From Bryobacterales bacterium (GTDB lineage: Bacteria; Acidobacteriota; Terriglobia; Bryobacterales; UBA6623), in assembly GCA_965203925.1 (NCBI GenBank), contig OZ241924.1, positions 768,629-832,628 of the forward strand: a stretch of 64,000 nt of DNA, written 5' to 3'. The notes beneath the pieces were generated by a model, which was not told where the DNA came from, searched no databases, and saw only the letters and a program-made list of their open reading frames with translations. Positions 36,787 through 40,811 of the stretch are shown here, one piece after another; the stretch's first letter is position 1, and each line of letters starts with the position of its first letter. The position numbers were made by a program, and so were the translations under genes.

Positions 36787-37917
36787 ATGAAGGTGCCGGA
36801 AGAGACCAAGTCCGACTCCCCGGCCCCGCACATGTTCTCAGCGGCCCCGCTGTGCATGTGGTGGAGGCTGATTCGAGAGAACGGAGGCATTACGCGTCCC
36901 TATTGGGGGAGGTTGGCGAAGGTGCTCGCTACGAGCCTTGCAACTGCACCCCTGCGCGTCCTGGAAAGCCTGTACTCGACACCGGCACTGGCTCGGACAC
37001 GCATCACCGAGCCGCCGGTGTACGTTCACGGCTTCGCGCGCAGTGGCACGACGTACCTGCACAACGTGTTGGCGCACGATCCAGGATTCGGATACGTGTC
37101 CACGTTTCAGGCGGCGGCGTCCCCGATGTTTCTGGTCGGCAGGGGCTGGCTGGAACGCATAATCGCGAAGAGGCTGCCGAAGAAGCGTCCGATGGACGAC
37201 ATGGCGGTGTCTCTGGAGCTGCCCCAGGAAGAGGACGTCGCCCTGGCCGGCATCTCGCATCTGTCGCCAATGCACTTCCTTTCCTTTCCGAACTCCGGGC
37301 CCGCAGTGCTGGAGAAGTTCGCCCGCATGCGGTTGACCTCCAGAGAACTCGCAGAGTGGGAACGAACGTACACCAAGGTGTTGCTCAAGGCGACGCTGGC
37401 GTCGCGCGGACGCCGACTCGTTCTGAAGAGTCCTGCCATGCTGGGTCGCACTTCGAGCATTCTGCGCCTCTTCCCCGACGCGAAGTTCATTTTCGTCGTG
37501 CGAAACCCCTACATCGTGTACTTGTCGGCGCTCAAACTCTACCGCACCATGGTGCCGATGTTCCAGCTGACGCCGGTCGACTGGAATGCCGTAGAGGTGG
37601 CGATGCGCGACAACTACGTGACGATGATGCGGAGGTACATGAGGCACCGCAAGGCGATCCCCGACGGCAACCTCATCGAGGTGCGTTTCGAAGAAGTCCT
37701 GGAAGATCCTCTAGGCGAGATCGAACGGATATACACGAGACTGAGTCTGCCGGACTGGAAACGGGCTCGCGGACCGATGGCAGAGTACCTGCAAACGCTG
37801 GTCGGCTACAAGGCGACACGCTACAGCATCCACCGAGAGACAATCGACATCGTCGACCGACACTGGGGATTCGCAGTCGGGGAATGGGGCTACGAGCCTC
37901 CCCAGCCCGACAAATAA
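36787..37917 (+). CDS. PAPS-dependent sulfotransferase, Stf3-like (Sulfotransfer_3)
   Basis: 5'-PSB loop PPVYVHGFARSGTTYLHNVL, KRPMDDMAVSLELPQEED, LVLKSP, 3'-PB FIFVVRNPY, IEVRFEEV. Confidence 0.88.
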   Translation: MKVPEETKSDSPAPHMFSAAPLCMWWRLIRENGGITRPYWGRLAKVLATSLATAPLRVLESLYSTPALARTRITEPPVYVHGFARSGTTYLHNVLAHDPGFGYVSTFQAAASPMFLVGRGWLERIIAKRLPKKRPMDDMAVSLELPQEEDVALAGISHLSPMHFLSFPNSGPAVLEKFARMRLTSRELAEWERTYTKVLLKATLASRGRRLVLKSPAMLGRTSSILRLFPDAKFIFVVRNPYIVYLSALKLYRTMVPMFQLTPVDWNAVEVAMRDNYVTMMRRYMRHRKAIPDGNLIEVRFEEVLEDPLGEIERIYTRLSLPDWKRARGPMAEYLQTLVGYKATRYSIHRETIDIVDRHWGFAVGEWGYEPPQPDK

Positions 37918-38195
37918 CCCGAACGTTCACCAAGAGACGTGCAAGCCCTATCGGTCTCGGCCGCCCCGAAGGGCCAGCGCCGCAACACAGCCTATCCACA
38001 GACAAACCGTGCGCGACGGACACAATCTTGCCGCCAGCTACAATTTACGGCAGCGCTCGTTGCCGGGTCCGGACAAGCGTCGTTCAGAAGCGTCGTCGCG
38101 GGAATGCCGACGGTTCGTTGGAAACGAAATCGAGCTGATCGAGGCTACAGTCGCCGAAGAGTATTGCCGAACCGTCAGAGTCTGTCCAGCCAACC

Positions 38196-40251
38196 ATGTT
38201 GCCAGCCCTTAGGTTTGCCGAGGAGTTGCTGCTCCTTCTTGTCAACAAGGTGAGCGGACAGCTGGCTCCCGTTCCGGAACGGTCGATGCGTTGCGCCGTC
38301 GCCGGAGCGGTGCTGATGGATCTCGCGCTGGAGGGCCGGATCGACACCGACCTGCAGCATCTCTTCGTGGTCGACCCGTCCCCGGTGAACGATGATCTGC
38401 TGGATCCCGCGCTCGCGATGATCGTCGGGGGGGCGGGGAGCGACACGGCTCACTGGGTGGAACGGCTGGCCGAGCCGTCCCGGGCCGACCCGATACGTGA
38501 ACGATCCTTGGAGCGCTTGGTCGAACGGGGCATTCTGCAACGGGACGCTGGAGGCACTCTGTTGTTGGCAAACCTAGTCGCCCGAGCCCGCCGGTATCCC
38601 ATGATCGACGGCGAAGCAGGACGCGAGGTTGAGTTGCGCGTCATGAGGACAATCTTCAGCGATGAGATTCCGGTCCCTCGAGATGGCATGTTGATCGCCT
38701 TGGTCCATGCCTGCGGATTCTTCGAACGGCTGCTGTCGCGCGCGGAATTGGCTGAGGTGCGGAATCGGATCGATCTCATCTGCCAGCTGGATCTGATCGG
38801 CCGCGCGGTCTTCGAGGCCGTACGGCAGGCCGGCGTTCCCGAAGTGAATATCAAGCTCGCCGCAGCCCACCTTTCAGCCGCTTCTCGTGCACGGGCGGTG
38901 TCCGCCCAGCCTCTCGCCGACAAGGGGGGGGCTGCCTCTCGCAGGCAACGCGGTCGGCTTGGGAGGCGACATCGGTGCCTTCATGGCAAAGCAATACCGC
39001 GAACTTGGCCCTGTGTTTCGCGTGCGCGCCTTTTCGCACCGGTACACGGTCCTCGCCGGACCGAAGGCCAACTTGCTTCTTGAGCGAGAGGGCCACCATC
39101 TGTTTCGAACCGTCAAGACCCACGGAGGGATTGCCCAAGGATTGGAGGCACACCGCGTCATCGTAAGCATGGACGGTAGCGATCATTTCGGTTTCCGTAG
39201 GATGATGAAGCGCGGCTATTCGTACGACTACGCCCGGAACCGGCTCGATACCTTCGCTGATATCTCGGCACGCGAAGTGGACCGCTGGCCCGAAGGCAAG
39301 GCAATCACGGTTCGGGACACGGTTCAACGCCTGGTCGCCACCCAGATCGCCACGGCGGCAACCGGCATTGGGCCCGGAGATTGTCTGGACGATATTGCGT
39401 TCCTCATGGACCGGATCGTAAGCGTGCGGCTTGTACGACGATTGCCTGAGATCATGTTGCACACGCCGCGGGTGCGCCGCGCGCGGGTGCGCATGGACAA
39501 GCTGTTCGTGAGAGTCCTTGCGGCGCACGAGGCGGAACCTCGATTCGGGCAGGAGGCCGGACATCATGTGCGGCCGGACTTTGTCGACGATCTTCTGGAG
39601 AAGCACCGGGACGATCCTCAGTTCCTGCCCGAGCTCGATCTGAAGGCGGCCTGCCTCGGCCCGTTTGTCATCGGTCTCCACACCGCCGCGAGCACCATTG
39701 CTCTCACGCTGTACGGGCTCCTCAAGCACCCGGAGACGCTCGAGAGCGCGCGGTCGGAAGCGAACGTGCTGTTCGCCGGAGAAGGTGTGACGGCCCGGAA
39801 ACTCCGGAACCTTGACGTCATTCACCGCGTGGCCTTGGAGACGATGCGGATGCACCCGATCGTGGCAGCGGTGCCGCGTGAGGTGGTCAACTCCTTTGAT
39901 TTCGCGGGTCACACGATTCCGTGCGGCACGAAGTGCCTGATCGCCGTCGCCGTGCCACACACCTTGCCGGAGTTTTGTCCGGAGCCGGAACGGTTCGACA
40001 TCGGCCGTTTCGCCGCGGACCGCCTCGAGCACCGGGCGCCGGGTGCGTGGGCGCCATTTGGCTTGGGCACGCATCGTTGTCTCGGCAGCGGTTTCTTTGA
40101 AATACAGTCGGCAATCACCCTCGCGACCATCCTCAACCGGTTGGAGATATCGCTGACCCCGCCCACCTACGCATTGAAGGTCCGTCATGCCCCGGCACCC
40201 AGGCCCGATGCCGGGTTCAGGATCAAGGTCGAGCGGCGGCCCGCAGGATGA
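38196..40251 (+). pseudogene. GPP34 (GOLPH3-like) domain::cytochrome P450 fusion, frameshifted at a G8 tract (684 aa if G7)
   Basis: First frame: LRFAEELLLLL...AGAVLMDLALEGRI...LERLVERG (GPP34). Second frame: GLPLAGNA...YRELGPVFR...ETMR...FDIGRF...FGLGTHRCLG (P450). Removing one G at 38924-38931 gives a continuous DKGGLPLAGN junction. Confidence 0.8.
38924..38931 (+). repeat. G8 homopolymer at the GPP34/P450 frameshift
   Basis: gac aag ggg ggg g ctg cct: one G more than the in-frame reading needs. Confidence 0.85.
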
Positions 40252-40270
40252 CCGAAAGGAAGGGAGCGTA

Positions 40271-40811
40271 GCTCGCTTCGTTCACATCTACCGCGACGGT
40301 CGGGACACGGCGATATCGATGAGCAAGCACCCCGGCTTTCGTCCGATGGCGATCAGATCGTTGATGCTCGAGAAGATCGGGCTCGAGCCGTTCTCGGCGG
40401 CGAACTGGGGGGAGCAGTCCCTGGGTGCACATTCCCGCCCGGATCCAGATGCGCCTCATGCCGCCGAAGTGGCTCCTGTCCAAGGAAATCCCGCTCGCGT
40501 CCTTCGGCTGGTTGTGGAGCGGAATGATCGAGAAAGGTACGGAGTTCCTCAAGGCGTTGCACCTGGAAAGGACGCTCTCGATGCGATTCGAAACGCTGCT
40601 CAAGTCGCCGAACAAGGAGATGACTCGCTTCATCGAATTCGTGGGGCCCGAGCTTGCGAACCAGCAGTGGCTCGAAGAAGTGAGCGCCCTTCGGCGTCCG
40701 AAGGCACCGGTCTGGCCTCGACTGGAAGCCACGCAGCAGGCCAGGCTGGCTGAGGCACGCGCTCGAGGGCAGGAGATCCTCGTTTACGCGACCGCCAGCG
40801 GGAGCCCCTGA
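40271..40811 (+). pseudogene. 5'-truncated, frameshifted sulfotransferase fragment
   Basis: ARFVHIYRDGRDTAISM (3'-PB motif) begins 20 nt after the P450 stop with no 5'-PSB loop. It continues in another frame after about 40420 as IPLASFGWLWS...SMRFETLLKSP...RFIEFVG. Confidence 0.7.

Follow-up and report, generated by a model that had tools for sequence, protein, structure and literature searches.

A probably inactivated copy of a mobile cassette from sponge-associated bacteria that links a GPP34::P450 fusion to sulfotransferases and may oxidize, conjugate and export a pre-existing compound

What does a cytochrome P450 do that carries a GPP34 (GOLPH3-like) domain as its N-terminal half and is encoded between two sulfotransferase genes? 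The question is raised by a 64,000-nucleotide (nt) stretch of the genome of a Bryobacterales bacterium (assembly GCA_965203925.1, contig OZ241924.1, positions 768,629 to 832,628; hereafter the window), in which a preliminary description, made from the letters alone, had recognized a sulfotransferase gene (ST1), a GPP34::P450 gene and a second sulfotransferase gene (ST2) and had proposed a pathway that hydroxylates and then sulfates a lipid. The fusion has been described as ‘GPP34_L’ (Microbiome 2025;13:4, PMC11706023), with 656 proteins that are exclusive to sponge symbionts and that occur in most sponge-symbiont genomes, across about 20 phyla, including 85.5% of the sponge-associated Acidobacteriota genomes (PMC11706023). 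The only function so far proposed for GPP34_L is that of a secreted effector that binds phosphatidylinositol 4-phosphate (PI4P) and blocks phagosome maturation (PMC11706023). In that study the flanking genes were analyzed only for the short GPP34 form, the PI4P-binding residues were not examined and the term ‘sulfotransferase’ is absent (PMC11706023). It was the only publication on a link between GPP34-P450 and sulfotransferases that turned up in the literature, and it does not describe the linkage. The statement in the preliminary description that no account of this combination was known is not supported, since the fusion itself had been published, although not its linkage to sulfotransferases. 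The answer put forward here is that the segment at 35.5-41.6 kb is, on balance, probably an inactivated copy of a mobile cassette of sponge-associated bacteria that hydroxylates, conjugates and exports a substrate made elsewhere.

As sequenced, the GPP34 and P450 parts of the fusion gene are not in one frame, being offset by +1 at a run of eight G residues (Table 1). Removal of one G, as the preliminary description had suggested, yields a 684-amino-acid (aa) GPP34::P450 protein that is 89% identical to the homologous protein P0001. This repair is correct, since the repaired protein is colinear end to end, including across the junction, with at least 120 full-length homologs, and the junction itself, AQPLADKGGLPLAGNAVGL, is identical in P0001. 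The repaired protein resembles the published GPP34_L in its PF05719 + PF00067 architecture (~660-690 aa) and its family in its distribution over many phyla, and differs in that the window copy is frameshifted. The P450 motifs of the window copy, namely the heme loop FGLGTHRCLG, the ExxR motif and the I-helix motif GLHTAAS, are intact. We rejected the idea that the junction is a site of programmed frameshifting or holds a conserved phase-variable tract, as close relatives of the locus are in frame with G7 or GGGAGGG and the frame breaks of two other loci (L054 and L079) lie elsewhere. Long homopolymers are also found inside or at the start of fusion genes of related loci, at positions 10238 of L080 (G13), 9979 of L081 (G17) and 11339 of L079 (C16); the C16 tract coincides with the frame break of L079, and such tracts could be hypermutable or could be consensus errors of long-read assembly.

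The layout of an intact cassette is seen in three close relatives at 82-92% nt identity, located on contigs of 1.09 Mb (L080), 28.5 kb (L082) and 9.9 kb (L083), in which ST1 is followed by the fusion, ST2 (350 aa, with a TTG start and the loop STGRCGSTLLS) and an exporter of the major facilitator superfamily (MFS). The MFS gene is convergent just after ST2 in L082, sits somewhat further downstream in L080 and is frameshifted in L083. In L080 the full order is sulfatase, ATP sulfurylase, PAPS_reduct, adenosine 5′-phosphosulfate (APS) kinase, ST1, fusion, ST2 and MFS, so that genes for 3′-phosphoadenosine 5′-phosphosulfate (PAPS), the sulfate donor, adjoin the cassette, and APS kinase or CysNC is present in two further loci of the sulfotransferase (ST) type. 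No PAPS-synthesis genes were found in the 64-kb window. Sulfatase genes lie near the cassette in the window (45304-46710), in L080 (1821-3182) and in L082 (144-4901, three in tandem), and sulfation and desulfation genes are therefore co-located.

The linkage between fusion and sulfotransferase is not restricted to these close relatives. The fusion architecture has at least 120 full-length GPP34+P450 matches in protein databases and at least 521 relatives among the GTDB species genomes, and the neighborhoods of the best-scoring 79 of these genome matches were surveyed by tblastn and iterated hidden Markov model searches with ST1 and ST2, by clustering of six-frame open reading frames (ORFs) within 6 kb of the fusion and by Pfam searches with the cluster representatives, with 81 comparison loci in the counts. 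All of the 79 fetched loci come from metagenome-assembled genomes (MAGs), and many of the bin names match what we take to be marine-sponge metagenome studies. In 22 of the 81 loci a sulfotransferase gene was found no more than 6 kb away, adjacent and co-oriented in most of them, a linkage far beyond chance. Within the same distance an Acyl_transf_3 O-acyltransferase is present in 16 loci, an APH/EcKL-type kinase in 13 and an AMP-binding ligase in 9, together with pumps of the resistance-nodulation-division (RND) type in 26, of the MFS type in 15 and of the ATP-binding cassette (ABC) exporter type in 12. A conjugating transferase thus occurs in 50/81 loci, a pump in 43/81 and both in 30/81, and the partner genes are mostly on the same strand as the fusion, with gaps of typically 20-150 nt.

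The type of partner is clade-specific on a neighbor-joining tree of the fusion and crosses phyla, with three sulfotransferase clades, a kinase and MFS clade, an acyltransferase and RND clade, and a ligase clade. The clade of the window copy comprises Bryobacterales, Gemmatimonadota, Rhodothermales, Paracoccaceae and Gammaproteobacteria, and a sulfotransferase is present in all but one of its ten members. The fusion and the adjacent ST1 have correlated pairwise distances (Mantel r = 0.655, a value reached by 0 of 2000 permutations). The neighborhood survey for which the preliminary description had called has found its linkage to be recurrent and consistent within clades, and the coupling of P450 and sulfation that it envisaged gains from the recurrent adjacency, the co-orientation, the Mantel correlation and the PAPS genes beside the L080 cassette. 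A Pfam census that took in 105 genes, located up to 3.5 kb from the fusion at 21 ST-type loci, turned up no recurrent core biosynthetic family or substrate-making synthase, the only recurrent extras being a few methyltransferases and APS kinase/CysN. Some genomes have more than one fusion gene, either in tandem (L039, 10070-11971 and 14016-15926) or at separate loci (L002/L010, L004/L006 and L008/L030), where the partner may differ (a sulfotransferase at L008, none at L030). In two Latescibacterota loci (L024, 6351-9976; L019, 7460-9851) two or three tandem ST1 paralogs are located directly upstream of the fusion, which suggests multiple sulfations of one scaffold.

The individual domains were compared with proteins of known structure. 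ST1 contains the strings RSGTTYLHN, RPMD and PQE, and its 5′-phosphosulfate-binding loop (ARSGTTYLHN) and 3′-phosphate-binding region (VVRNPYIVYLS) both align to the motifs of mycobacterial Stf9 (2Z6V, E = 8.7e-8), which together with Stf1 (2ZQ5, E = 2.6e-6) is its only solved relative; this supports the placement of ST1 in one sulfotransferase family with the mycobacterial Stf enzymes. ST2, whose L080 copy matches Pfam Sulfotransfer_3, has no informative solved relative, the best match being to the sulfotransferase domains of CurM and a related polyketide synthase (E = 0.005). By sequence the P450 domain is nearest to bacterial CYP51 and CYP120A1, and the AlphaFold (AF2) model of P0001 (predicted local distance difference test, pLDDT, 88.7; predicted template modeling score, pTM, 0.80) has as its closest folds CYP51, P450DA, CYP3A4/3A7, CYP184A1 and BM3, at identities of 16-23% that are far below family level. 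The P450 is not a member of the CYP51 family, as its identity to bacterial and human CYP51 is ~21-23% (E about 1e-29) and the nomenclature convention places members of one family at >40%. The I-helix motif of CYP51 is GQHT and that of the P450 is GLHT, so that a His-containing motif is shared. The heme and ExxR motifs are strictly conserved across the family. Among the named families of NCBIfam there was none for ST1, GPP34 or ST2, and the P450 gave only matches to terpenoid P450s far below cutoff.

Searched as a profile, the GPP34 domain matches GOLPH3 (3KN1/9QPQ, E = 1e-8) and Vps74. In GOLPH3 the PI4P pocket is formed by W81, R90, R171 and R174 (PMC2806290), and the equivalent residues were read from a profile alignment to 3KN1 and 9QPQ in 104 family members. 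W81 is replaced by P in 88 and R90 by A in 102 of these GPP34_L proteins, the position of R171 is occupied by D, G, E or S and is R in only two, and R174 is kept as R in 90. Three of the four pocket residues are thus lost family-wide, and hence the canonical PI4P site is not conserved. Instead of binding PI4P, the GPP34 domain probably serves in docking or in substrate access, with membrane proximity, partner docking and substrate delivery as candidate roles.

Taken together, the cassette would act in three steps. The P450 would hydroxylate a small hydrophobic molecule not synthesized by the cassette itself, namely a lipid, sterol or terpenoid-like compound that comes from the host or sponge or is otherwise already present; ST1 and ST2 would then O-sulfate the hydroxyl group or groups using PAPS; and the anionic product would be pumped out. 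The order of the reactions, the action of the sulfotransferases on the P450 product, the export of that product and the exogenous origin of the substrate are what we infer. In sister cassettes the place of the sulfotransferase is taken by an O-acyltransferase or an APH/EcKL-type kinase, and that of the MFS pump by an RND or ABC pump, and the general logic is therefore to oxidize, conjugate and export. Because bacteria that differ greatly in their own lipids share one clade of the cassette, the substrate is probably common to the sponge environment. The hydroxylate-then-sulfate scheme of the preliminary description fits better if a pre-existing compound is modified than if a lipid is synthesized de novo.

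How does this compare with the function published for GPP34_L? If the protein were secreted to bind PI4P of the host and to block phagosome maturation, the neighboring sulfotransferases would be functionally unrelated to it. In favor of this view, the domain is eukaryote-like, and the protein is exclusive to sponge symbionts and is expressed in sponge metatranscriptomes (PMC11706023). A pocket that keeps one of four residues is difficult to reconcile with PI4P binding, however, and the GPP34 domain begins at residue 2, with no N-terminal signal-like extension. In addition, the strictly conserved P450 motifs belong to an enzyme that needs a cytoplasmic reductant, and the clade-specific, operon-like partners are efflux pumps and enzymes that depend on cofactors of the cytoplasm (PAPS, ATP, acyl donors). 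The secreted-effector hypothesis for the long form is thereby weakened, and we regard it as very unlikely. An endogenous sulfolipid pathway, in which the bacterium would modify its own membrane isoprenoid or quinone with the GPP34 domain anchoring the P450 to the membrane, is closer to the preliminary description and has a precedent in the Cyp128/Stf3 pair (PMC6469627); the adjacency of a P450 to a sulfotransferase of the same family as the mycobacterial Stf enzymes and the PAPS genes adjoining the L080 cassette also agree with it. Yet the same cassette clade is found in Acidobacteriota, Gemmatimonadota, Rhodothermales, and Alpha- and Gammaproteobacteria, phyla with different endogenous lipids, and sponge symbionts are the only reported source of the family (PMC11706023). 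Linkage of exporters to the fusion is common, the P450 resembles CYP51, CYP120 and CYP3A rather than the typical class I P450s of actinobacteria, and the GPP34 domain, a putative membrane anchor, has lost its PI4P pocket. As core biosynthetic genes are lacking around the ST-type fusions and many phyla are involved, endogenous lipid biosynthesis is less likely than the modification of a pre-existing or exogenous compound, and we consider it rather unlikely.

A separate question is whether the copy in the window is truly dead. Compared with its relatives it has four lesions, namely the additional G in the fusion, a 516-bp deletion, a 2-bp deletion and an MFS gene cut to 54 codons. The 516-bp deletion at 40270|40271, defined by comparison with intact orthologs, takes out the TTG start and the PAPS-binding loop of ST2, the loop seen in L080 falling within the deleted stretch, and the 2-bp deletion at ~40409 shifts the ST2 frame. 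Two short ORFs of this region (40187-40753 and 40425-40811) have faint sulfotransferase similarity, and the PAPS motifs were not found in the window ST2. The second sulfotransferase of the preliminary description is thus sulfotransferase-derived and in the right place, although only a remnant. The decay of ST2 and of the MFS exporter is real. That of the fusion is probable and not certain, because the frameshift is located in a homopolymer and an error of assembly is the alternative. In that case the fusion would not be broken, and a working pair of ST1 and GPP34::P450, minus ST2 and the exporter, would carry out a single sulfation. The lesion is indeed a single-base change of length in a G7/G8 run, long homopolymers also occur in, or coincide with breaks of, other long-read MAG loci (C16 in L079, G13 in L080), and the catalytic motifs of the fusion are all intact, with a ratio of nonsynonymous to synonymous substitution rates (dN/dS) of 0.34 against L080 that is below 1. 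This dN/dS is twice the value for ST1 (0.16, at 93.6% aa identity to the L080 ortholog), however, and the two deletions and the MFS truncation are three independent lesions of the cassette that are not homopolymer artifacts. We treat an intact fusion as a serious but lesser possibility. Judged from its sequence, the cassette in this Bryobacterales genome would be a non-functional relic in which ST1 alone is intact, and the ‘decaying or switched off’ of the preliminary description was an understatement, as ST2 and the MFS exporter are dead too. Since several genomes have two cassettes of different types (the three pairs of separate loci named above), redundancy of the window copy is plausible.

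Several observations weigh against an oxidize, conjugate and export cassette. The survey was limited to the best-scoring matches and used crude six-frame ORF clustering and a neighbor-joining tree, and the Mantel correlation may in part reflect shared ancestry. With a sulfotransferase in ~28% of the loci, sulfation is one variant and not the rule, and none of the partner families was found in 11 of the 81 loci. The locus L081, with a fusion that is 74% identical, has an acyltransferase and an RND pump in place of the sulfotransferase. In ST-type loci a pump was often not recognizable by ORF clustering, and no redox partner gene is linked to the cassette. The possible assembly error at the G8 run counts here as well.

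Three known systems help to place the cassette. The operon for sulfomenaquinone in Mycobacterium tuberculosis, in which Cyp128 (Rv2268c) and Stf3 (Rv2267c) are proposed to hydroxylate and then sulfate a lipid, itself a published hypothesis (PMC6469627), shares with the window and with the 22 ST-type loci an adjacent P450 and PAPS-dependent sulfotransferase, here co-oriented, and ST1 belongs to the same broad Sulfotransfer_3/Stf-like group as mycobacterial Stf1 and Stf9. In contrast, Cyp128 lacks a GPP34 domain, the P450 of the cassette is nearest among solved structures to CYP51, CYP120 and CYP3A types, and an intact cassette, which moves between phyla, comprises two sulfotransferases together with an exporter. 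The motifs of ST1 had been called Stf3-type, a reading that is not supported, nor is orthology to Stf3, as RSGTT is the generic 5′-phosphosulfate loop of PAPS-dependent enzymes and ST1 is only distantly related to Stf9 and Stf1 (E = 9e-8 and 3e-6), with low identity (E about 1e-7). A precedent for symbionts that sulfate host lipids is the cholesterol sulfotransferase BT0416 of Bacteroides thetaiotaomicron, which converts a host-derived sterol to its sulfate ester (PMC9417993) and is not known to involve a P450 step or a GPP34 domain. The logic of oxidation, conjugation with sulfate, acyl or phosphate groups, and export is also that of eukaryotic phase I/II/III metabolism by CYP3A-type P450s, SULT and other transferases, and efflux. 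The P450 of the cassette has a fold near CYP3A4, CYP3A7 and CYP51, and EcKL-type kinases are conjugating enzymes too, but the components of the cassette are bacterial and operon-like, its transferases share no homology with the cytosolic SULTs apart from the PAPS-binding fold, and a GPP34 domain takes the place of the microsomal transmembrane anchor.

How did the cassette reach this genome? Homology to the cassettes of relatives extends over 35573-41601 and is bracketed by two 123-nt direct repeats that are 97% identical to each other, ending at the right copy; the repeats occur twice in the window and in none of the related loci. The preliminary description of three co-oriented genes in a repeat-bounded cassette is confirmed in its coordinates, its strand and its repeats (Table 1). 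As the repeat contains the ribosome-binding site (RBS) and ATG of a GH109-like gene, the leader of that gene was duplicated on arrival of the segment. Such a duplication is the footprint expected of a putative single-crossover (Campbell-type) integration, and the repeats would also permit deletion by loop-out. Each of the four relatives has different flanks around the cassette, in agreement with mobility. The region upstream of ST1 had no match in an Rfam scan and could be a candidate promoter or regulatory region of the cassette.

Table 1. Cassette features and borders in the 64-kb window (window positions)
Feature	Position	Strand	Remarks
Direct repeat, left copy	35339-35461	+	123 nt; RBS and ATG of the leader of the GH109-like gene
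Remnant of 148-aa hypothetical gene	35573-35774	+	blastn 83% to L080 7452-7898, which precedes ST1 there
Conserved upstream region without convincing ORF	36103-36786	+	~680 nt; 82-87% identical to the ST1-upstream regions of L080, L082 and L083
ST1	36787-37917	+	376 aa; Pfam Sulfotransfer_3, E = 4.6e-30; intact
GPP34 ORF as sequenced	38196-39083	+	PF05719, E = 3.1e-36, residues 8-211
GPP34 (GOLPH3-like) domain, N-terminal half of fusion	38196-38931	+	out of frame onward to 39083
P450 ORF	38887-40251	+	PF00067, E = 1.1e-45; +1 frame relative to GPP34, overlapping the GPP34 ORF
G8 homopolymer with +1 frameshift	38924-38931	+	G7 in L080; GGGAGGG in L082 and L083
Cytochrome P450 domain, C-terminal half of fusion	38932-40251	+	PF00067
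ST2 pseudogene	40271-40811	+	C-terminal ~180 codons of a 350-aa sulfotransferase
MFS exporter remnant	40787-40948	-	last 54 codons; found by tblastn with the 422-aa MFS of L082
Direct repeat, right copy	41597-41719	+	123 nt; overlaps the start of the GH109-like gene (41717)

Some further features of the window and of related loci were recorded. The remnant of the 148-aa hypothetical gene consists by tblastn of two pieces in different frames, and the gene belongs to no Pfam family. An ORF of L080 (‘hyp219’) and its minus-strand counterpart in the window were rejected as a gene, being of low complexity, interrupted by a stop in the window and overlapping the 3′ remnant of the MFS gene. The GH109-like (GFO_IDH_MocA) gene that starts at 41717 is split by an insertion sequence (IS) element at 42557-44809, which is bounded by terminal inverted repeats of 37 nt (42557-42593 and 44773-44809) and encodes a DDE transposase of 662 aa (42768-44756), and the likely continuation of the gene is at 44809-45291. 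Within 48589-49409 a gene for a protein with a SocA/Panacea antitoxin domain (48589-49110, E = 4e-11) precedes an ORF of 95 aa, with which it may form a toxin-antitoxin pair, and a HigB-like toxin gene is found just upstream of the L083 cassette. A DUF1501 and PSCyt1/PSCyt2/PSD1 gene pair is located at 51085-55469, and the same type of pair flanks the L080 and L081 cassettes. About 5 kb at 25134-30388 have no confident gene call and may be non-coding or contain decayed genes; the only long ORF there (25389-26579, minus strand) has no Pfam match. The G+C content of the window is 60-69%, its RuvB shares 99% identity with the RuvB of a Bryobacterales (Acidobacteriota) MAG, and Rfam and tRNA scans of the window gave nothing.

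In the published account GPP34_L is a secreted PI4P-binding effector, whereas here it is tied to conjugating enzymes and pumps and has lost the PI4P pocket. An enzymatic role in small-molecule metabolism is suggested by the clade-specific partners and pumps, by the PAPS genes in the nearest relative and by the loss of the pocket. The window copy illustrates how such cassettes are gained by insertion and then decay, and it may also show how stand-alone ‘GPP34_S’ genes are derived from fusions. Polyoxygenated and polysulfated steroids are abundant in sponges (PMC6723502, PMC7551063, PMC8145587). It is conceivable, if distinctly unlikely on present evidence, that GPP34::P450 cassettes oxidize, conjugate and export host sterols or sterol-like compounds and are thus a bacterial counterpart of the phase I/II metabolism of steroids in animals. 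We know of no established biosynthetic origin of the polysulfated steroids of sponges, and if this idea were true, the ST-type cassettes, some of which have two or three sulfotransferases in tandem, would be among their sources, and a hallmark gene of sponge symbiosis would be redefined from a ‘phagocytosis effector’ to a ‘host-lipid modifying enzyme’. An enzymatic role of the cassettes would also point to where the enzymes for the sulfated and oxygenated lipids of sponges might be found.

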